From: a virus | Reading direction: 5' to 3' (one strand) | Length of the DNA stretch: 25,422 bases | Virus genome (UHGV): UHGV-0247665 | Shown here: positions 1-23,802 of the stretch, one piece after another | Position numbering within the stretch: the first letter of the stretch is position 1 | Layout: every line of letters starts with the position of its first letter | Position numbers and translations under genes: made by a program | The notes under the pieces: model-generated | What the model was told of the DNA's origin: nothing | The model's database searches: none | Seen by the model: the letters and a program-made list of their open reading frames with translations, nothing else

Positions 1-1443
1 TCCATCAAATGATGCATCTGAATACGTATATACTGATTCACTGCCAGCAATTTTAAACTGTTTAACTGAAGTTATTCTCATCGACTTTTTATGTTTAAAT
101 GTCACTGAGCTTTCAGTATTACTTACAAGATCAATCTGAGGGCTATTCCTTATCGCGATTCCTGACTGTACATAAACGTTATTAAAGTGCGTTTTTTCAG
201 GATTTCCCTTCATTGAAAGGCTCCCGTCATTTTCTGTCAGTAGTAGTCCTTTTACCCTCCAATAGCCGACAATCTGTACGTTATCAATAACTGAATCACA
301 GCTATCGTATACATGCAACCCTATATCCCAGTCATCACCCAATGAATAAGAATCAGGGTTATTGTATCCTTCAATACCATTTTTACTTACCATTATTCTC
401 AGGTTGCGTAACTGTGATGCCCTGTTGATACTAACAGCTACGCTCATGGCTTTTGGTGTAGCAGGAGTAACACCTACAGAATCTTCATTTGTAAACTCAG
501 TGAACTTACAAGATATCCCTTCAACAATTTTAACTGGTCTTTCATTAGAGATGTTAAAAAAATATTTGTTTTTTTCTCCATCACCAGTAAATACAAGATG
601 GGTTCCTTTACTCCAACTTTTTAATAATCTTTCAGGCGCTGGTCTATATGTATCCCAATAATCAATGCCATCACCAATTAAAGACACTCCAGGAGGCACA
701 TCTATGTTCTTAGAAATCATCCATTTACCTGCAGGTATTCTAACGACACTTGCACCAGAATTTATCGCATTAATTAACCATTCAGACGCATCAACTTCAA
801 AATTTAATGCAGCATATCTTTGCTCAAACGGAACAAAATCAAGAGCGTTAACGTTATCCCGCATCTTATCCTGGAACGTTCGGTATACTGCTCCAGAACC
901 ATACTGAATAAACCAACCAAAACCACCAACAACTCCGGCGATTGCAGCATCAACATAATTGCGCATTGATCGATTATTTACAGCATCCTGCTCAAGTGAT
1001 GGATCTGCAAGGTTAGAAATTTTGTTTTGCTTTGCATCGTAATATTTTGCAAGCAAAGATGGTTTCATCAATGCACGTCTGAACCATCCAAAACATTGCT
1101 GGATCAGCATCGTCAGATAGTCAAAGGCATCTTCATGCACCTCGGGGAAAAATTTTCCCTGATTACGAAGATCAGTCTCCTGCACCACATCAAGCACACG
1201 ATCTATCGTAATTCGCCATCCAGCAGCAAGCGGCGACGGAAGAACAACAGAACCGCCACTATAAGTGCCCGCCCCTGTTACCGTATAACCGGTATCCAGA
1301 ACCAATTCTGTTACGTTCCCGTTCAGGTCAGACACCTGAACAACCAGGTCGGATTTTTTGAAAATACGGAAGGTATACGGAAATGATGTCGTAGCTCCGT
1401 TACCTGTGTATTCGTTGTGGTCAACTTCGGTTGAGACCGTCAT
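1..1443 (-). CDS. Tailspike / tail fibre protein, N-terminal 481 codons (3' end lies beyond the window start)
   Basis: ATG at 1443 (minus) with GGAG 7 nt upstream. My own minus-strand translation is open from 1443 to position 1; it is absent from the ORF track only because no stop falls inside the window. N-terminus MTVSTEVDHNEYTGNGATTSFPYTFRIFKKSDLVVQV... has the architecture of the T7 gp17-type N-terminal tail-attachment domain. A later segment (ALDFVPFEQRYAALNFEVDASEWLINAINSGASVVRIPAGKW) resembles the start of beta-helix depolymerase domains. GC content drops 3' of roughly nt 900. Confidence 0.8.
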   Translation of the reverse strand, partial: MTVSTEVDHNEYTGNGATTSFPYTFRIFKKSDLVVQVSDLNGNVTELVLDTGYTVTGAGTYSGGSVVLPSPLAAGWRITIDRVLDVVQETDLRNQGKFFPEVHEDAFDYLTMLIQQCFGWFRRALMKPSLLAKYYDAKQNKISNLADPSLEQDAVNNRSMRNYVDAAIAGVVGGFGWFIQYGSGAVYRTFQDKMRDNVNALDFVPFEQRYAALNFEVDASEWLINAINSGASVVRIPAGKWMISKNIDVPPGVSLIGDGIDYWDTYRPAPERLLKSWSKGTHLVFTGDGEKNKYFFNISNERPVKIVEGISCKFTEFTNEDSVGVTPATPKAMSVAVSINRASQLRNLRIMVSKNGIEGYNNPDSYSLGDDWDIGLHVYDSCDSVIDNVQIVGYWRVKGLLLTENDGSLSMKGNPEKTHFNNVYVQSGIAIRNSPQIDLVSNTESSVTFKHKKSMRITSVKQFKIAGSESVYTYSDASFDG

Positions 1444-1547
1444 GTTAAATCTCCAGATAGTCGCAGCACCCGTTGCGCCGCATATCTGGTTATTCTATTA
1501 CCTGAAAAACCACATATGGATAGAAAGACTGTAAATACGAATAGATA

Positions 1548-1562
1548 TTACCTTTCGGGTAA
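1548..1562. promoter_or_regulatory. TTACC-N5-GGTAA palindromic motif copy (ATTACC-tttcg-GGTAAT)
   Basis: In the divergent intergenic region between the tailspike start (1443) and the LexA box/85-aa gene; followed by TTGCAA. Confidence 0.5.
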
Positions 1563-1601
1563 TTTGCAAAACGTGCTGGATAGCAAACAAATTATTTGAT
1601 A

Positions 1602-1617
1602 CTGTATAAATATACAG
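1602..1617 (+). promoter_or_regulatory. LexA (SOS) box, CTGT-N8-ACAG
   Basis: 20-mer TACTGTATAAATATACAGTT (about 1600-1619) matches the E. coli LexA consensus TACTGTATATATATACAGTA at 18 of 20 positions with both CTGT and ACAG arms intact. It is preceded by TTGATA (1596-1601) and lies 21 nt upstream of the ATG at 1639. Confidence 0.75.
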
Positions 1618-1638
1618 TTATTACATGGAGAAGATAAG

Positions 1639-1896
1639 ATGCAGCAGTATCACTATCCACTGGAAGACGGATTTACCGAAAGGATTCACACGCCGGGAGG
1701 CGTCAGGTCACTGGTGGAGGGATCGCACTTGATGAAATTACTCCGGGATCTCGATAAGGATGGATTTAATGTCGATGGCCCACTTGCCGAACTGACTGCA
1801 CTGATTAACTACGTCACCAGCTCACAGATGTCTATGCAGGATCTACAAACACATCTCGACTATTGTGCCGAACAATTACGAAAACAAACCAGATAA
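1639..1896 (+). CDS. Small protein (85 aa) homologous to the C-terminal domain of the downstream antirepressor; candidate SOS-controlled antirepressor or modulator
   Basis: ORF track 1639..1896; GGAG at 1627-1630, 8 nt before the ATG. Its sequence (HTPGGVRSLVEGSHLMKLLRDLDKDGFNVDGPLAELT...DLQTHLDY) aligns with antirepressor residues HSPSGVLGLTENSLLMNLLNQLQEDGHDVSGAAAELT...DIQTHAEY at roughly 35-40% identity by eye. Confidence 0.7.
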   Translation: MQQYHYPLEDGFTERIHTPGGVRSLVEGSHLMKLLRDLDKDGFNVDGPLAELTALINYVTSSQMSMQDLQTHLDYCAEQLRKQTR

Positions 1897-1927
1897 GGTT
1901 TGCAATTACCAAATGGAGTGCTTATAT

Positions 1928-1942
1928 TTACCTTTGCGGTAA
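1928..1942. promoter_or_regulatory. TTACC-N5-GGTAA palindromic motif copy (TTTACC-tttgc-GGTAAA)
   Basis: Between the 85-aa ORF stop and the antirepressor leader; followed by TTTACA. Confidence 0.5.
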
Positions 1943-1977
1943 ATTTACATCGCACTCCTCTTGTGCCATAGTAATCG

Positions 1978-1999
1978 GGCACTGGCAAAATCCAGTGCC
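1978..1999 (+). other. Perfect 8-bp inverted repeat stem-loop (GGCACTGG-caaaat-CCAGTGCC) in the antirepressor leader
   Basis: Read directly from the sequence; no U-run follows, so it is not a classical terminator. Confidence 0.5.
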
Positions 2000-2035
2000 G
2001 GGATTGGCGTCACGAGTTACTACAGAGGCACATAT

Positions 2036-2055
2036 GCCGCATAAGCGGTTTTTTT
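2036..2055 (+). terminator. Weak intrinsic terminator-like hairpin (gCCGC-ataa-GCGGt followed by TTTTTTT)
   Basis: 4-5 bp stem followed by seven T residues, 140 nt downstream of the 85-aa ORF and about 150 nt upstream of the antirepressor start. Confidence 0.35.
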
Positions 2056-2208
2056 ATGTGTAAAGCGCACCTATTCTATGGTGGGCTGTGTGGGGGCACC
2101 GAAAGGTGCGCCGGGTCCTTTGTAGCCGGTTACGCCAACCCTGCACAGTTCACCACCAACCGATTGGCGTCGGTAGTGGTGATTAACCTAACTACAAAGG
2201 TGATCGCT

Positions 2209-2895
2209 ATGACTGCTAACGTAACCCCATCTGTTTTTCATTTTGAATCAGAAGCAACCATTCGAGCCATTGTTATTGATGGAAATCCTTGGTTTGTTGC
2301 CAAAGACGTTATTAAAGCTCTTCAACTGACAAACCCCACTATGTCAATAAAATCTCTTGATGATGATGAAAGGGCTAAATTTAACTTAGGCCGTCAAGGC
2401 GAAACCAATATTATCAACGAGTCAGGCCTCTACACACTGTTCCTCCGCTGCCGCGATGCGGTGACACCAGGCACTACCCCCTACCGCTTTCGTAAATGGG
2501 TTACAGGTGAGGTTCTTCCTCAGATCCGCCGCACCGGAAGCTACATTAAAAACTCGCTCCCGCAGGAAGAACGCATAAAGATGGTTGCCGACCAGGTAGC
2601 CAACGCCACGGCGTCAGCAGTAATGCAGGCGATGAAGATAGAGAACAAAACCTACAGCGCCCCGCTGAAGCCCGGCTACCGCAGTTTGATTCACTCGCCG
2701 TCTGGTGTTCTCGGCCTGACGGAGAACTCACTGCTGATGAATCTGCTGAACCAGTTACAGGAAGACGGGCACGACGTATCGGGCGCGGCGGCGGAACTGA
2801 CCACCATGTTCTGCTACATCGTCGGTGTGAGTAAATGCCTGCGTGATATCCAGACCCACGCGGAATACATCAACGACAAGGCAGGGGTCTTCTGA
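2209..2895 (+). CDS. Phage antirepressor with N-terminal Bro-N domain (228 aa from ATG 2209)
   Basis: In frame within ORF track 2056..2895. The ATG at 2209 is preceded by AAAGGTGA. N-terminus SVFHFESEATIRAIVIDGNPWFVAKDVIKAL...NIINESGLYTLFLRCRD...FRKWVTGEVLPQIRRTGSY matches the Bro-N consensus. The sequence upstream of 2209 within the tracked ORF is structured leader, not coding. Confidence 0.85.
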   Translation: MTANVTPSVFHFESEATIRAIVIDGNPWFVAKDVIKALQLTNPTMSIKSLDDDERAKFNLGRQGETNIINESGLYTLFLRCRDAVTPGTTPYRFRKWVTGEVLPQIRRTGSYIKNSLPQEERIKMVADQVANATASAVMQAMKIENKTYSAPLKPGYRSLIHSPSGVLGLTENSLLMNLLNQLQEDGHDVSGAAAELTTMFCYIVGVSKCLRDIQTHAEYINDKAGVF

Positions 2896-2904
2896 CAGAA
2901 CGGC

Positions 2905-2931
2905 GGCACAGGGATGTGCCTTTAAATAATT
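2905..2931 (+). terminator. Intrinsic terminator after the antirepressor gene (GGCACA-GGGA-TGTGCC then TTTAAATAATT)
   Basis: 6-bp GC-rich stem with a 4-nt loop and a T/A-rich tail, starting 10 nt after the stop at 2893-2895. Confidence 0.5.
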
Positions 2932-2961
2932 CTGTACAGATTGCAGGTGAATAGCGTACTA

Positions 2962-2976
2962 TTACCCCAAAGGTAA
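2962..2976. promoter_or_regulatory. TTACC-N5-GGTAA palindromic motif copy (ACTATTACC-ccaaa-GGTAAG)
   Basis: About 120 nt upstream of the two-gene cassette start; followed by TTGATT. Confidence 0.5.
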
Positions 2977-3093
2977 GAAAGTTGATTTGTAACATTTTAG
3001 TTTGTAGTTACCGTGATGGTTTTGCTGCAGAAAGTTAACTAGTCAAAATCACACCGTATGTAAGTCACGTCTGTTCCCGTATGGGAGGATGAT

Positions 3094-3312
3094 ATGTTTA
3101 AATTTGATATGCAACTCAACCAAAACTATGCCTCTTTTTACCATCCAGAAACTGGTAAAGCTGTTTTCGTTGACTCTTTCGATAATGAAGAATTTGATAT
3201 CAGAATTGGGACCCTACGCCAAAGTAAGCATGTTGCTACTGTACGTGCATCCAATGATGATGAATTAAATCAAAAAATAAGTGAGGCGACCTCCCGTTAT
3301 CTATGTCTATAA
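3094..3312 (+). CDS. Hypothetical protein (72 aa), first gene of an AT-rich two-gene cassette
   Basis: ORF track 3094..3312; strong SD GGGAGG 5 nt before the ATG. Local GC is well below the flanking phage DNA. No recognisable family. Confidence 0.6.
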   Translation: MFKFDMQLNQNYASFYHPETGKAVFVDSFDNEEFDIRIGTLRQSKHVATVRASNDDELNQKISEATSRYLCL

Positions 3313-4566: not shown

Positions 4567-7041
4567 TTATTGCGGAGTGACATCCTGTGGTCGCCACCAG
4601 TATGTCTGGTTAAACTCTTTCTTCGAACGTTGCTCCATTTTACGCAAATAGCCTGGTGAAAAATACTCCTGCATCTGGTTAAAGATCATGTGATCGAGAG
4701 CCGCCTTCAAGTACCAGAGATTCGCACCAGGCATCAAACCTTTCCCCAGCTTCACCAGATCACCACCAGTCTGCTCACTCTTCCCTTCCACAGCATTTAA
4801 CGGTATGCCCTGAGCAATCTTCACTACGTCATCAACCAGACCAGCTACCGGGCCAAGCATCGACGCCAGCGCGCCGCTTCCGTACCTAGTGTGATCTGAC
4901 AATAAAAAGTCACCGTAAAGGCCAAGACCACCACCTTTCAGTAGAGCACCAAGCCAGAATTTTGCGGCATCTTCTCCTGTCATCTCTCGAGGATTACGAC
5001 CAGACGCAAGGTCGTTAAGTTGCTGCGACAAAGCGCCAAGAATGGTCGTACTGGCAATAAACGTCGCAATATATGCCGCACGCCCACCAGCAGACGGCAT
5101 ACCCATAGCGCGTGACCAGTGACGCATAACAACCGAGATAGGGAACGATTTAAACAGGAAAACACTTCTCGTTAATTCACCTTTCCATGTTCCACGCTGA
5201 ATACCAGAACCGGTTATCAGTTGCTCACGTGCTCCCGGTGTAATAACAGCCATATCAACTTCTTCAGTTACGGCACCGAGCAGTTTACGCATTGCCTCAA
5301 ATTTCACGCGTTCAGGCTCACCAAGATGTTTAACTGCTGAATCAGAGATACGCATAATGCTTTCCGGTGTCAGCATCGTATTATTACCGTTCCCCCAGTC
5401 CTCCTGTTTCGCCAGCTTCCATACGCTCCAGTCTGTGTCAGTAATCCCTTTGCTTTTCAGGATACGAAAATCAGAGTCATCGAGGCTACGAAGGTCTGGT
5501 GTCCGTGACACTACTTCTCCCAGGCTTCCCATCATGGTTACGCCATAGGCGCGCTTGTGCGCATCTGACCATGCTGTAAGCCCACTGGCACGCATTACCG
5601 CCGTTGCCGCCCAACGAGACACTGACGGCCCCATATTATCCATCGCCCAGCGGTTAACGCTGCCAAGTAGAGATTCCATCGCCAGACCAGCGCGGCGCGC
5701 CCGCGCAAGTTCTGTACGGTTCGTTGGGTCCATAGCTTCAAGCTGGTTGCGGAATAACTGGTTCATTGGAAGGTTGGTAACCTTCGCAGACAGATACATG
5801 GTTCCAAGATCAGAGAACGATGACAGCAACGCGGATCCGAGTCTGCTGGCAACCAGCCAGTTGCGGATATTGTCAGACCATCGCGCGATGTGCGGATTCG
5901 CTACAGGCTGTGTCTTTCCGGAAATAAAGTTGTACAGATTCTCTGTGTTGTTCGCCAGCCGCTCGACTTTACCGGTTTTACTCGGGTTAGCTGTTGCCGT
6001 TTCTGCCTTCACCTGATCAAGAAGAGAGCGGAAAACATGATCGGGGTTTGGGCCATATGTTTCCACCAGTGCAATATCTTTACTGATACCTTCCAGGTGA
6101 CCGACCATGATTTCCCATAGAGAGCGATCGCCATAAAGTTGCTGATATTGCAGATAGGAATCTGCATCTTTGAAATGTATCTGTCGTGATGCATTACCAC
6201 GGTTAGCACGTGCGCCGGAAATTCGCATTCCGGTATCAGTAAGCTTATTCAGCCCACCAGTAGCGATCGTGTTATAAGCCTCTCCAAGAAATGAAGACAA
6301 CTCGGCATCGTTCATCAGTTGTCCATCGGCTCGGATATAATATTTGCGATCCAGCTTACCTATAACATCGCTAACCCACTTATCCTTTGATACTGCCCCA
6401 ACCTTTTCCATAGAATGATGTTGAGGGATCCCCCAGTTTTCGAGATAGCCAATGTCCCCACCAGCATCATTAAACCGGCGGCGCAGCAGCTCTGTAACTT
6501 CTCTCCACGCCTTAGCACCGTTTCTTGCTTTAGCATTGCCAGTATTTTGCCCCCGCATTTCATATACCAGGTCACGTACGCCCGCTTCATCTTCAAACAG
6601 ACCAAAAAAGCGAGGATCAACTGCTTCGAATGCCTCCTGCAATTGACTCAATGCATAATCACGGGTGGCTTTTGTTCTGGATTCAACAGAGAGGAAATTA
6701 GATTTACCGTCTGCATTAAAAGCTATAGTACGGTTAAGAGCGCCAAGTTTCCCATCAGCCCCTTGATAGCTATTGATAAATTTATCCAATCTCTGACGCG
6801 CGGCTATAGTGAGAGCCACACGACGTTTCTTTAATGCCGCTTCTCGCTGTAATTCTTCAGATGCCAATTGTGCTGCTCGATATAGCCGCTCTGATTCGGA
6901 AAGTTGTCGCCACGACATAGGGTCATCACGAGCAATGGAGCGCATATTTCGATAAATGCGGTCTTCAATGTTCTGTATTTCTCGCGCCGTTAACATGCGC
7001 TGCGCCGCCTGCTGAACCGCTTGTATACATTCCTGTCTCAT
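4567..7041 (-). CDS. Internal virion / ejection protein (824 aa)
   Basis: ORF track. Last large gene of the minus-strand core-protein block, with a Gly-rich hydrophobic C-terminal region typical of membrane-inserting ejection proteins. Functional analogue of T7 gp14-16 by position and size only. Confidence 0.75.
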   Translation of the reverse strand: MRQECIQAVQQAAQRMLTAREIQNIEDRIYRNMRSIARDDPMSWRQLSESERLYRAAQLASEELQREAALKKRRVALTIAARQRLDKFINSYQGADGKLGALNRTIAFNADGKSNFLSVESRTKATRDYALSQLQEAFEAVDPRFFGLFEDEAGVRDLVYEMRGQNTGNAKARNGAKAWREVTELLRRRFNDAGGDIGYLENWGIPQHHSMEKVGAVSKDKWVSDVIGKLDRKYYIRADGQLMNDAELSSFLGEAYNTIATGGLNKLTDTGMRISGARANRGNASRQIHFKDADSYLQYQQLYGDRSLWEIMVGHLEGISKDIALVETYGPNPDHVFRSLLDQVKAETATANPSKTGKVERLANNTENLYNFISGKTQPVANPHIARWSDNIRNWLVASRLGSALLSSFSDLGTMYLSAKVTNLPMNQLFRNQLEAMDPTNRTELARARRAGLAMESLLGSVNRWAMDNMGPSVSRWAATAVMRASGLTAWSDAHKRAYGVTMMGSLGEVVSRTPDLRSLDDSDFRILKSKGITDTDWSVWKLAKQEDWGNGNNTMLTPESIMRISDSAVKHLGEPERVKFEAMRKLLGAVTEEVDMAVITPGAREQLITGSGIQRGTWKGELTRSVFLFKSFPISVVMRHWSRAMGMPSAGGRAAYIATFIASTTILGALSQQLNDLASGRNPREMTGEDAAKFWLGALLKGGGLGLYGDFLLSDHTRYGSGALASMLGPVAGLVDDVVKIAQGIPLNAVEGKSEQTGGDLVKLGKGLMPGANLWYLKAALDHMIFNQMQEYFSPGYLRKMEQRSKKEFNQTYWWRPQDVTPQ

Positions 7042-8849: not shown

Positions 8850-11359
8850 TGCGGAATATCTCCGGAGAATCTCTGACGCTTCTGTGTCAGATTAAGAACA
8901 ACGGGAGAACCATCATCTTTCAGCAGATAACCAGTACCAAGTTTCACCAGGTACTGACTATCGCCGTAACTTTGCAAACCATACTGACCAGGCGGTGTTT
9001 TTATCCCGGAGCCGACAACTTGTTCATTCCAAGCCTGATTAACCTGCTTATCGAATTGCTCTGCAGACATTCCCCACGGCAAAAGGACATTCCCCATTCC
9101 GTTATAGTCATGCACGCCACCTGTAGCTACGTTAACAGCCTGTTTCCAGACATCATTGTCAATTTCGCCTGATACCACGCCTTTTTTCGCCATCACACCA
9201 GCGTAATAATCCTTTGCGATCTCGTATGCCATTGATGCGCCCTGAGCGTCACCAGCAAATGCATCCTTCACCATGTCAGAAAACTCAAGGCGAAGATCAG
9301 CATCTTTAGGCATCGGAATACCTTTCGCATCATCAGTACCTTTACGAGCCGCCGCGCCAGCAAGAATTGTCTGCGCAGCGGTTTCAGGAGACACGGAAAC
9401 ATCCGGATTAAACCAGTTTTTTTCTGCCAAAATACCACCAGGCTTATCCATCAGTATCCCGGCAACGGCAGCAGATGGAGCGTTGGCACTGATCTGCTGT
9501 AGTGCTGACATATACACCTGCCCACCACCAGTGCTCTGCCTGATGGTATCGAGATATGCTGCCTGTTGGGAAACTGGAGCATCACGAAAGAAAACACCGA
9601 TCTGATTGGCCTCGTCTTTGGAAAAGAACGTCAGTGGAGTGCCATATGACTTAGCAAGGTCACTGACCTGAGCGGCACGCAAGGCAACGCTCTGTCCAAA
9701 GTTATCCTTATTGCTCATGTCGATAGGCTTTGCCTGTCCGGAGGCAAGAGAGAACTGCACAGGATCCGACTGCCGCTGCTTTATCACCTGATTTGCAGCC
9801 GAAACAACGTTGTCATAAAGAGTTGCGCGTGCCGCATACCCCTCCCCTGTATCACCAGTATCCGGGCGTAATTGCTCAACATATGCTGTAATGCTGCTTG
9901 TCGGCATGTTGCGGAAAGAGCCTATATACTGTCCGGCGATCTGCGTATTCTTAAACTCGGTATATCGCAGGTTTCCTTCTCTGACTCCATAAGCTGCAAT
10001 AAAATCATCCTCACCAGGTGGGTTAGGAAATTCAATGCCACGCATATACGCAGCCGTCGCATCGCGAACCCGGCTGTCGAGCATCGTTTTATATTCAGCC
10101 TGCTGTTGTCTGGCTAGTGCATCAGTCTGTCGCAACACGCTGGCCTGATCTGATTCACTTAAAGCATCGAACCAGGCTACACCGGTATAACGTTTATTTT
10201 TTGTCGGTAGCTGAGAAAGCCCCAGCGCAGCACTAACACCTGCAGTTAACTGCTGATCACTGTATGGCTGGCTACCGTTTTCATGATGGATAATGGCTGC
10301 ACAAAGCGCCTTCAGGGTATCAGGATTTGATGCATCGAGAGGCTCATCAGCAGAAACGCCAAGTTGTTCGCACACTGCTTTGATATACGACATAGTGTCA
10401 TTTTTATCAGTAGGCGGTGCCCAGCGATTAATTATCTCGCTGACGGTATCAATACCCTGCCGCTGATACGACATCAGGTTCCGCCCTAATGCACGAATAC
10501 CGTGTTCAGGGGTTTCGAATTTGGCAAAGCGACCATCATCACCAGTCTGCCCAACCCACGGATTAGTTTTGCTGTATTCAAGATTGCCGGGGTTATTGTT
10601 GCGTATACCGCGGGTACGATCGGAAGAGCCACTATCTGCTACAGCACGGCGAGAACCAGCAGCAGTATCGCTTAACTCGCCGTTTTGCTGTCTTACCTGA
10701 AGATAGTTTGCTCCAATAGCATTTTGAGCAGTTGCTTTTGCTGTTGCTTCTTTAAACTCGATTTTCTTGGCCTGGATTTGCTCGTCACTCCAGCCATGTG
10801 CAATGCCGTAATCCTCAATTTGCTGGAAAGTTTGCTTATTAGCCAATACGTATGCGGCGTTGTCGCCATACAATGCTGCGGCATTTTTACCATTGTTCAG
10901 CAGCGTAGCCTGAAACTGGCCTTCTTCGTAGGCATTTATTTGCCCTATCTCGTGCCGCCCGGCCTGCGTAGTGAACTGAATGCGCTGCTGCTGCGCCTGC
11001 TGCATGAAAGCATTACGAGCCTGTTCATCCGGCAGCGACATAGCCAGTTGTTCGACCTGAGCATCAAACTGCTGCGTATACTCCTGACCTTTTCCAATAG
11101 CATTTTTCCCTTTCAGGTTAAGCAAACCTGTTTCAGGATTATTCAGCAGATCGCTGCTTATCTGGCTTAAGCTAAGAGAAGCATCCTGAGCCATAGCAAC
11201 ATTCGCACGCTGTTTTGCCTGCGCAATAATACCTGCATATTGCTCTGCAACATCGCCAAGTACATCACCGACATTTGGTGTCTGAAACGATGAGAATCCC
11301 TGCGTCGAAATCCCTCTGCTCTGAACCTGACGGCCCGATGTTGTTGGTACAACTGGCAT
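8846..11359 (-). CDS. Internal virion protein (837 aa) with a conserved internal block (GIRNNNPGNLEYSKTNPW...)
   Basis: ORF track. Position in the core-protein block; the conserved-looking block at about aa 251-310 (about nt 10430-10609) has no function I can assign. Confidence 0.75.
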   Translation of the reverse strand: MPVVPTTSGRQVQSRGISTQGFSSFQTPNVGDVLGDVAEQYAGIIAQAKQRANVAMAQDASLSLSQISSDLLNNPETGLLNLKGKNAIGKGQEYTQQFDAQVEQLAMSLPDEQARNAFMQQAQQQRIQFTTQAGRHEIGQINAYEEGQFQATLLNNGKNAAALYGDNAAYVLANKQTFQQIEDYGIAHGWSDEQIQAKKIEFKEATAKATAQNAIGANYLQVRQQNGELSDTAAGSRRAVADSGSSDRTRGIRNNNPGNLEYSKTNPWVGQTGDDGRFAKFETPEHGIRALGRNLMSYQRQGIDTVSEIINRWAPPTDKNDTMSYIKAVCEQLGVSADEPLDASNPDTLKALCAAIIHHENGSQPYSDQQLTAGVSAALGLSQLPTKNKRYTGVAWFDALSESDQASVLRQTDALARQQQAEYKTMLDSRVRDATAAYMRGIEFPNPPGEDDFIAAYGVREGNLRYTEFKNTQIAGQYIGSFRNMPTSSITAYVEQLRPDTGDTGEGYAARATLYDNVVSAANQVIKQRQSDPVQFSLASGQAKPIDMSNKDNFGQSVALRAAQVSDLAKSYGTPLTFFSKDEANQIGVFFRDAPVSQQAAYLDTIRQSTGGGQVYMSALQQISANAPSAAVAGILMDKPGGILAEKNWFNPDVSVSPETAAQTILAGAAARKGTDDAKGIPMPKDADLRLEFSDMVKDAFAGDAQGASMAYEIAKDYYAGVMAKKGVVSGEIDNDVWKQAVNVATGGVHDYNGMGNVLLPWGMSAEQFDKQVNQAWNEQVVGSGIKTPPGQYGLQSYGDSQYLVKLGTGYLLKDDGSPVVLNLTQKRQRFSGDIPQ

Positions 11360-20642: not shown

Positions 20643-20657
20643 TTACCTTTCAGGTAA
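20643..20657. promoter_or_regulatory. TTACC-N5-GGTAA palindromic motif copy (ATTACC-tttca-GGTAAG)
   Basis: Intergenic, between the 68-aa/portal gene start and the tRNA; a TTGACA hexamer lies at 20621-20626. Confidence 0.5.
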
Positions 20658-20979: not shown

Positions 20980-21056
20980 GTGGCATTAGCTCAGTTGGAC
21001 AGAGCAACCGCCTTCTAAGCGGTTGGTCGCAGGTTCGAATCCTGCATGCCACGCCA
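20980..21056 (+). tRNA. tRNA-Arg (anticodon UCU), 77 nt with encoded CCA
   Basis: Folded by hand: 7-bp acceptor stem GTGGCAT/ATGCCAC, D-arm, anticodon stem ACCGC/GCGGT with loop CTTCTAA (U33, anticodon TCT, A37), T-arm GCAGG-TTCGAAT-CCTGC, discriminator G, CCA. Close to the E. coli argU-type tRNA. Confidence 0.92.
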
Positions 21057-23177: not shown

Positions 23178-23770
23178 TGATTACCATCCTGACGTTCTTT
23201 GAGTCGCTTCCTGGCTGCTGCTATGCGATCAGCAATTGTCACATTCACATTAACATCCAGACGTTCTTTGAACGCGTTGACATCAACATGCTTACCAATC
23301 AGCTCAAGGTTCTTCACCTTGTCAGGCCATTTAATTTTTTTGAGGATTGTCTCTATCGAATCCTCGTTCATGTTCATGATGGTCGATGACAGATCAAAGC
23401 CACTAAGCGTAGTGCGCCAGATTTTCGGCCACTCACGGATTGGTTTAAGGCTCCCATCGTCGTTGAGGATGTCGATCACGTCCATCTGGTCGATCTGCAC
23501 CAGGCGCATGAGAACGTAATCAGCACTGACGCGCATTCGTTTGTTGCGCTCCTCCATCAACTCGGCAATCCGTTTTTGAATGCGTTCATCGCGCATCATG
23601 ACACTGGCTTTAACTGCCGCTGTATTTGGGGAGAATCCTGCGTTAATCGCTGCCTGAGTCTGGTTTTCAGGCGTTTTGATGTATGACTGGCAATAAGCCT
23701 CCTGCATTGCTGTTAGTGGCTTAAATTGCGTTGATTTGCGTTTATAGGTTTTAGGTTCAGCAGGCATCAT
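23174..23770 (-). CDS. Terminase small subunit (about 199 aa from ATG 23770)
   Basis: ORF track 23174..23848 uses a TTG start. I prefer the tandem ATGs at 23770 and 23767, preceded by GGTGG, because a terminator hairpin and motif cluster occupy 23771-23848. The LTAMQEAYCQSYIKTPENQTQAAINAGFSPNTAAVKA region resembles small-terminase (Terminase_2-type) N-terminal domains. Confidence 0.75.
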   Translation of the reverse strand: MMPAEPKTYKRKSTQFKPLTAMQEAYCQSYIKTPENQTQAAINAGFSPNTAAVKASVMMRDERIQKRIAELMEERNKRMRVSADYVLMRLVQIDQMDVIDILNDDGSLKPIREWPKIWRTTLSGFDLSSTIMNMNEDSIETILKKIKWPDKVKNLELIGKHVDVNAFKERLDVNVNVTIADRIAAARKRLKERQDGNQ

Positions 23771-23787
23771 AACCACCGTGGTAATAG

Positions 23788-23802
23788 TTACCGTTTTGGT
23801 AA
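23788..23802. promoter_or_regulatory. TTACC-N5-GGTAA palindromic motif copy within a cluster of GGTAATAGT repeats
   Basis: GGTAATAGTTACC-gtttt-GGTAATAGTACC lies 20-40 nt upstream of the small terminase ATG. Confidence 0.5.

Follow-up and report, generated by a model that had tools for sequence, protein, structure and literature searches.

Leader RNAs of phage antirepressor operons

In phage P22, the sar RNA is a transcript of the strand opposite its target, to which it is fully complementary, and pairs at the ribosome-binding site of ant. The CI RNA of P4 (seqA/seqC) and the CA RNA of N15 are small RNAs that are processed from the leader of the operon they control. They have complementary sites both upstream and downstream and act mainly through transcription termination.

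The immI operon of phages P1 and P7 consists of c4, icd and ant (Citron and Schuster 1990, as cited in PMC7313666 and PMC12197685). The GenBank record of P1 gives the order of elements as the operator Oc4, two promoters, a1, b1, c4, a2, b2, icd and ant, and published work on P1 has established that the 5' end of the C4 RNA is made by RNase P.

In Gifsy-1, an antirepressor-like gene, anrP, is preceded by isrK and orf45. The short IsrK RNA activates translation of the antirepressor in trans, and its terminator is leaky, with a measured partial read-through that gives the ant mRNA. A processed, stable RNA, STnc1160, was seen at the place where C4 maps, in the segment there called "orf45", and a resemblance of this segment to seqA/CI of P4 was remarked upon (PMC4825925). 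Hfq binding and activation in trans by IsrK are known for Gifsy-1 only (PMC4825925). The APSE phages of Hamiltonella have isrK and C4 together with a Bro-N gene, whose leader is targeted directly (PMC7313666), and isrK, C4, a' and b' are already marked beside that gene in their GenBank records.

The locus and its antirepressor gene

The window analyzed here is a viral DNA stretch of 25,422 nucleotides (UHGV-0247665). It is 100% identical to Escherichia phage Phi05_1387 B, the record of which is without annotation, and 92-95% identical to three epsilon15-like podoviruses, phiV10, TL-2011b and ZX5. By its sequence, it is a phiV10/epsilon15-like podovirus of E. coli.

The regulated gene, ant (2209-2895, plus strand), encodes a 228-aa Bro-N antirepressor. 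It is recognized by Pfam (Bro-N, 3.8e-19, with the domain starting at residue 18 counted from the ATG at 2209) and by PHROG 130, anti-repressor Ant (2.9e-55). The protein is 81% identical to ORF4 of vB_EcoP_ZX5, the overexpression of which lowered lysogeny (PMC9782041). An 85-aa gene ends upstream of ant at 1896, leaving a spacer of 312 nt. The original prediction had drawn attention to this spacer and its hairpins, and the spacer is real, although it had been given as 310 nt and ant starts at 2209 rather than 2210.

The structure in the spacer is beyond chance: two Rfam covariance models match it above their curated thresholds, and the 262-nt leader folds with a z-score of -3.95. We consider it likely, with a probability of roughly 0.8, that the spacer is the leader of an antirepressor operon of the P1 immI type, a C4/IsrK switch residing in a phiV10/epsilon15-like podovirus.

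The IsrK-like RNA

An Rfam scan of the whole window gave a match to isrK (RF01394) at 1979-2055 on the plus strand, which covers positions 1-77 of the model and scores 65.5 bits against a gathering score of 50. This IsrK-like short RNA, or a1b1 leader, is made up of a first hairpin, a hairpin containing a1, a single-stranded b1 and an intrinsic terminator. It is delimited by a predicted promoter, with a start at about 1979, and by the terminator at 2036-2055.

The hairpins at the two ends of this RNA, its 5' hairpin and its terminator, are the first two of those originally pointed out. The perfect 8-bp hairpin at 1978-1999, GGCACUGG-CAAAAU-CCAGUGCC, is confirmed. It has a ΔG of -13.6 and a z-score of -4.8, none of 200 shuffled sequences was as stable, and compensatory changes are found at 6 of 7 pairs among 35 loci. 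What had been called a terminator-like element is a genuine intrinsic terminator that would bound a short RNA, the isrK match ending at 2055. It has a 5-bp GC stem with an AUAA loop, GCCGC-AUAA-GCGGU (2036-2049, ΔG -7.5), followed by U7 up to 2055, exceeds shuffled sequence in stability, as do the other two hairpins, and was picked up by the terminator scan; the phiV10 record annotates the equivalent element as a terminator. A riboswitch or ligand-sensing attenuator was also considered for the spacer and rejected.

The a1 hairpin is weakened in the window by substitutions relative to its closest relatives and contains one non-standard pair, G2001-A2012. In a permissive Rfam scan, the c4-a1b1 model (RF03163) reached 32.1 bits at 1966-2018, under its gathering score of 46.7; this stretch is also covered by the isrK match. 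The same model gives 51 bits with P1 and 48 bits with Gifsy-1. The leader of P1, in turn, aligns with the whole of the isrK model, including the terminator, at 35 bits, and Gifsy-1 matches isrK, c4-a1b1 and C4, in that order. Judged by these matches, the IsrK of Gifsy-1 and the a1/b1 leader of P1 are one and the same element, the leader of immI-type operons; a 2025 review still treats them as separate.

The C4 RNA

The second family match, to the C4 antisense RNA (RF01695), is at 2074-2160 on the plus strand and covers the full model (1-87) with 79.5 bits against a gathering score of 45. All Rfam matches in the spacer are on the plus strand, and none was found on the minus strand. The minimum-free-energy fold of 2074-2160 is the family consensus (ΔG -45.2, z -3.6), with a 17-bp closing stem (2079-2095 with 2139-2155), two hairpins at 2096-2109 and 2110-2130, and a single-stranded junction. 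Among 35 loci, the closing stem is 99.8% paired, with six compensatory pairs, and the C4 helices as a group are 91-100% paired, likewise with compensatory changes.

The first of the two hairpins, GCACC-GAAA-GGUGC (2096-2109), is the GNRA hairpin of the original prediction and is present as described, with a ΔG of -9.9 and a z-score of -4.1 relative to shuffled sequence. However, it is not an element of its own, but one arm of C4. Neither the closing stem nor the second hairpin (2110-2114 with 2126-2130), which has b' as its loop, had been described in the original prediction. The b' sequence, CCUUUGUAG, occupies 2117-2125 on the plus strand, and a', ACGCCAA, occupies 2132-2138 in the single-stranded junction.

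The closing stem resembles an acceptor stem and is followed by CCA at 2156-2158. By homology to the 77-nt C4 of P1, the ends of which were taken from the annotation of the P1 record, the mature C4 is predicted to extend from about 2080 to 2157. Weak Rfam matches to RsmV and sR10 within 2700-2920 were rejected as chance.

Target sites of a' and b'

When C4 was searched exhaustively for helices with the sequence around it, complementary sites came up on both sides. On the downstream side, a2 (UUGGCGU, 2164-2170, plus strand) forms seven Watson-Crick pairs with a', and b2 (CUACAAAGG, 2192-2200, plus strand) forms nine with b'. The b2 site overlaps AAGGUGA, the Shine-Dalgarno sequence of ant (2197-2203). 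A second set of targets is present upstream of C4, within the IsrK-like RNA, where a1 (UUGGCGU, 2004-2010, plus strand) forms seven Watson-Crick pairs with a', and b1 (CUACAGAGG, 2020-2028, plus strand) forms eight with b', plus one G-U pair. These four complementary sites were absent from the original prediction.

The spacing is close to that of P1. The distance from a1 to b1 is 14 in P1 and 16 in the window, that from a2 to b2 is 29 and 28, and that from the start of b2 to the start codon is 18 and 17, respectively, while a2 begins 4 nt past the end of C4 in both. The first open reading frame past b2 is the 228-aa Bro-N Ant, with no icd in between.

The energies of the predicted duplexes are less telling. 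Cofolding of C4 with the ant leader and with IsrK gave a ΔΔG of about 0, in a calculation that cannot represent loop-loop contacts, and duplex and cofold energies discriminated weakly, with 22 of 500 and 8 of 500 shuffled sequences doing as well. Because these calculations barely separated the real sequence from shuffled ones, covariation was used as the evidence for pairing.

Covariation among related loci

In an alignment of six phages (the window, P1, Gifsy-1, APSE-8, Tyrion and phiV10), phiV10 is one base short in each of b', b1 and b2, and Tyrion has changed a', a1 and a2 together, with AAGACCAA in C4 and UUGGUCU at both targets. APSE-8 and P1 each carry their own matching sets.

When IMG/VR was scanned for the pattern of the conserved 5' strand of C4, 120 loci were obtained, 54 of which could be parsed cleanly. 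The regular-expression parser lost about a third of the true C4 loci (from 88 to 59 to 54), so the locus counts are a sample, not a census. The 54 loci include 19 b' loops and 12 a' types in 27 combinations. Each C4 was compared, independently of any alignment, with its own flanks and with the flanks of loci of another type. The mean helix length is 8.6 with own flanks and 3.8 across loci for b2, 8.4 and 5.5 for b1, 7.0 and 3.6 for a2, and 6.7 and 4.9 for a1.

In an alignment of 35 sequences, 93.8% of the intramolecular structure is paired, compared to 36-46% when the partners are slid, and 22 pairs are compensatory. Pairing in the a1-a' helix is 85.7%, and both sides have changed at 6 of its 7 pairs. 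The b1-b' helix is 58.6% paired in the MAFFT alignment, in which differences in loop length shift the columns; for this helix, the alignment-free comparison of own and foreign flanks is the valid test, rather than the column count. As far as the sequences of about 54 loci go, C4 and both of its target sets change together. The longer helices with own flanks and the paired changes therefore indicate that the pairing scheme is under selection and is no coincidence of a single sequence. These data are also a compact demonstration of the co-evolution of a', b' and both target pairs.

Loci differ in the first gene past b2, which may be Icd-like (64-81 aa), Rha-like (120 or 181 aa), Bro-N (194-234 aa) or KilA-N-like, so icd is a feature of P1 and not of the RNA family. 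By the same sequence comparison, a Bro-N gene under direct control is a common subtype, to which the window belongs.

Promoter, operator and the upstream gene

A promoter scan found a sigma-70 promoter-like site at 1944-1972 on the plus strand (TTTACA-17-CATAGT, with TG) with a predicted start at about 1979. This site is also missing from the original prediction. At the -10, the letters A-T-A-x-T do not vary among the window, P1, Gifsy-1, APSE-8, Tyrion and phiV10, and the -10 of the window aligns with the annotated -10 of P1c4 (P51b) in P1.

One base 5' of the -35 hexamer is the palindrome TTACC-N5-GGTAA (1928-1942), a candidate repressor operator. The window has four perfect copies of this palindrome and two with one mismatch, where 0.3-0.5 would be expected, and phiV10 has 14 copies, all of them intergenic, against 0.66 expected. 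Two pairs of palindromes flank the phiV10 repressor gene, p40, and in Tyrion and phiV10 the arms are conserved while the spacer is free to vary. The palindrome is probably the operator to which the phage repressor would bind, paralleling Oc4/Op51 of P1.

The 85-aa gene upstream shares 88% identity with the gene annotated as ant in Salmonella phage SPC32H, and its protein shares 40% identity with residues 147-224 of the Bro-N Ant. Ahead of the gene, at 1600-1619, lies a near-consensus LexA box that is conserved in SPC32H, Tyrion and phiV10. The Ant of SPC32H is presumably under LexA control, in keeping with the GenBank annotation and the LexA box. In SPC32H, the small gene stands alone, followed by a different terminator of its own and without the isrK-C4 cassette, and the isrK-C4-ant cassette is therefore an add-on in the phiV10 group. 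The terminator scan found no plus-strand terminator between 1896 and 2036, so SOS-induced transcripts of the 85-aa gene may reach the a1/b1 segment. A sub-threshold Pfam match of the 85-aa protein to DUF724 is regarded as noise.

Proposed control of ant by C4 and the IsrK-like RNA

The reading of the spacer as an immI-type leader is founded on its family membership, the predicted structure, the complementarities, the position of b2 at the ribosome-binding site and the three-way covariation. Under this reading, transcription would start at about 1979, from the promoter beside the candidate repressor operator. Most transcripts would probably stop at 2055, giving a 77-nt IsrK-like RNA that displays a1 and b1, whereas those that read through would include C4 together with the ant mRNA. 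The 5-bp terminator is a weak one, in agreement with a partial read-through like that in Gifsy-1. Attenuation, one of the two modes of control originally suggested for the spacer, may hold in this limited sense, as a leaky IsrK terminator whose read-through gives the ant mRNA in Gifsy-1 (PMC4825925).

By analogy with P1, C4 is presumably excised from the read-through RNA and accumulates. Its b' and a' sequences would then pair with b2 and a2, so that the Shine-Dalgarno sequence is covered and translation of ant is blocked; C4 would act directly on the ribosome-binding site of ant. The IsrK-like RNA would compete for C4 as a decoy, both in cis, as part of the precursor, and in trans, in its short form, and the balance between IsrK and C4 would therefore set the synthesis of Ant and the induction of the prophage. 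Processing and translational block, like activation by IsrK, are modeled on what has been published for P1 and Gifsy-1. When the C4-containing segment was co-expressed constitutively in Gifsy-1, the toxicity of IsrK was enhanced and not relieved (PMC4825925), which is a poor fit to a simple repressor-plus-decoy scheme and argues against it.

A more far-reaching version, which we offer only tentatively, is a two-input switch without a coupling open reading frame, in which C4 occludes the Shine-Dalgarno sequence of ant, the IsrK-like RNA serves as a sponge, and SOS transcripts titrate C4. Since there is no terminator between the 85-aa gene and a1/b1, SOS-induced transcripts would carry the decoys and could titrate C4 in this way. 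DNA damage would then unlock a second antirepressor, with a C-terminal domain paralogous to the first. Such a switch would also make explicit that the IsrK of Gifsy-1 is the a1/b1 leader of P1.

Relation to the known systems

The window shares with the immI operon of P1 and P7 the order of operator, promoter, a1, b1, C4, a2, b2 and first gene, with nearly equal spacings. It also shares the C4 fold, where a hairpin loop holds b' and the junction holds a'; b2 likewise falls on the first gene's ribosome-binding site, the promoter has a site that resembles a repressor operator, and the regulated product is an antirepressor. Unlike P1, the window has no icd, and b2 covers the Shine-Dalgarno sequence of ant itself. 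Its antirepressor is a Bro-N protein, whereas P1 has Ant1/Ant2; its a' and b' sequences differ, implying another specificity; its operator motif is a different one; and it belongs to an integrating podovirus, whereas P1 is a plasmid prophage.

The similarity to isrK-orf45-anrP of Gifsy-1 (PMC4825925) lies in the two RNA families, which precede an antirepressor-like gene in the same order, in the identical a' and a1/a2 sequences (ACGCCAA/UUGGCGU), and in a leaky terminator that bounds the short RNA, the leakiness being measured in Gifsy-1 and predicted in the window. However, orf45 is not intact in the window (15 codons) and is uncoupled from ant, the specificity of b' is different, and the upstream gene encodes a small antirepressor, apparently LexA-controlled, where Gifsy-1 has antQ. 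A permissive Rfam scan found no isrJ downstream in the window, again unlike Gifsy-1. The window is also like the APSE phages in its combination of isrK, C4 and Bro-N and in the apparent direct targeting of the Bro-N leader (PMC7313666), but the identity over the leader is about 69%, and a'/b', phage type and host differ.

The spacer structure is thus real and functional and belongs to known Rfam families in an arrangement that is annotated elsewhere; as such, it is already known. The local variation, we infer, is the absence of any icd or orf45 coupling frame, with C4 aimed straight at the ribosome-binding site of ant. Current understanding of phage immunity is unchanged. What is gained is the annotation of a previously unannotated stretch of a phiV10-like E. 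coli phage and an explanation of how its Bro-N antirepressor, the ZX5 homologue of which shifts the balance between lysis and lysogeny, is probably kept silent.

The CI and CA RNAs of P4 and N15 are from other sequence families. With P22 sar, the window has in common that the synthesis of the antirepressor would be limited by an RNA that pairs at the ant ribosome-binding site; in contrast to sar, its regulators are on the same strand and make loop contacts of 7-9 nt.

Alternative explanations

The main rival, which we think unlikely but keep in view, is activation by remodeling alone, as in Gifsy-1. Here, a1/b1 would pair in cis with a'/b', leaving the mRNA inactive until IsrK remodels it, and the C4 segment would be a structure of the mRNA, or a small open reading frame, and not a free repressor. 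The minimum-free-energy fold of 1979-2240 does pair a1/b1 with a'/b', like "structure A" of the Gifsy-1 study, and the genetics of Gifsy-1 support activation by IsrK in trans (PMC4825925). However, the Gifsy-1 model needs translation of orf45 to be coupled to that of the antirepressor. The orf45 frame begins at ATGGUGGG, which forms the 5' strand of the C4 stem, and in the window it runs from the ATG at 2078 for 15 codons to the TAG at 2123-2125, which lies in the b' loop and 84 nt short of the ant start; the coupling step therefore cannot apply. Moreover, the compensatory changes in the C4 stem are of the RNA type, a processed RNA was seen in Gifsy-1 (PMC4825925), and a2/b2, which covary with a'/b', would be superfluous.

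An immI-type leader also accounts better for the spacer than an ordinary intergenic region would, in which the hairpin with U7 would simply end transcription of the 85-aa gene, the other hairpins being incidental. There is indeed a terminator 3' of that gene, and no other on the plus strand in between. Such a view is nonetheless very improbable in the face of two covariance-model matches, compensatory changes and three-way target covariation, and the homologous small gene of SPC32H has a different terminator of its own and no cassette.

Just as improbable is that the spacer is coding, either for a leader peptide or for an N-terminal extension of Ant from the ATG at 2056 (279 aa). The frame 2056-2895 is open and in frame with ant, but this ATG directly follows the U7 run and has no Shine-Dalgarno sequence, whereas the ATG at 2209 has a good one, with Bro-N beginning at residue 18 of its product. 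The corresponding ATG of phiV10 (1548), also directly behind the U-run, is in a different frame from that of Bro-N (1710), and the frame it opens, followed by eye, ends after 25 codons at the TAG of the b' loop. The pattern of variation is also that of paired RNA.

The original prediction was right that a small RNA is likely to control antirepressor translation, but its comparison to P22 sar fails mechanistically, and a minus-strand countertranscript over the ribosome-binding site of ant is scarcely credible: on the minus strand, the scans showed neither a promoter-like site in 1300-3200 nor a terminator in the spacer, the Rfam matches are all on the plus strand, the IsrK-like and C4 RNAs are on the same strand as ant and inside its leader, and the complementarities that covary are between segments of that one strand.

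Two Antirepressor Genes in Tandem

The cassette of IsrK-like RNA, C4 antisense RNA and ant is preceded by a gene for an 85-aa protein (1639–1896), which lies 20 nt downstream of a near-consensus LexA box at 1600–1619 (TACTGTATAAATATACAGTT, two mismatches to the consensus). The product of this gene is 88% identical to a protein of Salmonella phage SPC32H that is annotated as “ant: anti-repressor protein”, and SPC32H, Tyrion and phiV10 all retain the LexA box together with its flanks. The near-consensus box and the identity to the SPC32H protein together indicate that the locus carries two tandem antirepressor genes, one predicted to be SOS-controlled and the other predicted to be controlled by C4.

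The two proteins belong to the same family, PHROG 450. Over 78 residues, the 85-aa protein is 40% identical to the C-terminal third of the Bro-N antirepressor (2647–2880; E = 8e-16), and by sequence it is a paralogue of that part. This paralogy suggests that the domain common to both antirepressors would be the part that contacts the repressor.

A probable operator for that repressor is the palindrome TTACC-N5-GGTAA, which occurs in the window at 1548–1562, 1928–1942, 2962–2976, 20643–20657, 23770–23784 and 23788–23802, and at 14 sites in phiV10. It is strongly over-represented, and every copy in both genomes is intergenic. The phiV10 repressor gene has two pairs of copies flanking it, while terS, the lysis genes, int and both ant promoters are each preceded by a single copy.

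Variation of the Cassette

In some viral contigs the complete IsrK-C4-gene cassette occurs as two or three tandem copies. One viral locus (L036) has three copies, 656 nt apart, within 9770–11104, and another (L094) has tandem copies at 4806 and 5462. Tandem cassettes differ in the specificity of the C4 pairing elements a' and b', and in each the cassette's own targets match. When the P1-like loci L022 and L054 are compared with P1 itself (L005) and the P1-like locus L010, all four combinations of a' and b' types are found: the P1 a' occurs with an alternative b', and the reverse pairing occurs too. The presence of all four combinations indicates that a' and b' behave as specificity elements that recombine independently.

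In many loci with Rha-like downstream genes (L007, L012 and L036, for example), the ATG of the conserved ATGGUGGG, which is the 5' strand of C4, opens a reading frame that is free of stops into the start of the downstream gene and in register with that gene. The frame from this ATG closes after 14–15 codons in P1 and the window. In the Rha-like subgroup the open frame may possibly be used, as is claimed for orf45, the frame downstream of IsrK in Gifsy-1.

Additional Complementarities

The sequence GUGGUGA (2176–2182), which lies in the ant leader 3' of a2, complements the 3' strand of the closing stem of C4 (2150–2156). It is conserved across loci, its G and U being invariant in 35 sequences. 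When the leader is folded alone, GUGGUGA is predicted to pair with the Shine-Dalgarno/AUG region, displaying b2 in a loop, and it may possibly act as an alternative-helix switch.

The 22-nt linker between the IsrK terminator and C4 contains GCGCACCU (2065–2072), which is perfectly complementary to AGGUGCGC (2104–2111) within C4. This element is limited to the closest relatives of the window and is absent from phiV10 and the other loci compared. In its 3' arm (2011–2017), the a1 hairpin differs from that of the closest relatives by three substitutions (GUCACGAG in the window, GUCCCGGA/G in the relatives), which disrupt one hairpin pair (G2001–A2012) and reduce the c4-a1b1 score.

Flanking Features and Annotation

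Nine nucleotides past the ant stop codon, a hairpin, GGCACA-GGGA-UGUGCC (2904–2920), is followed by a U/A-rich stretch and is possibly a weak terminator. Its match to the RsmV GGA hairpin is at chance level (E = 0.59). Gifsy-1 has isrJ, whereas no isrJ homologue was found downstream of ant in the window. A tRNA-Arg gene (anticodon TCT) is present within the phage genome at 20980–21056.

In the phiV10 GenBank record (L004), positions 1537–1604, which span the IsrK terminator and extend into the 5' part of C4, are labelled [quoted passage not shown]. Judging from this label, some genomes apparently have the RNA gene of the C4/IsrK region annotated as protein-coding.
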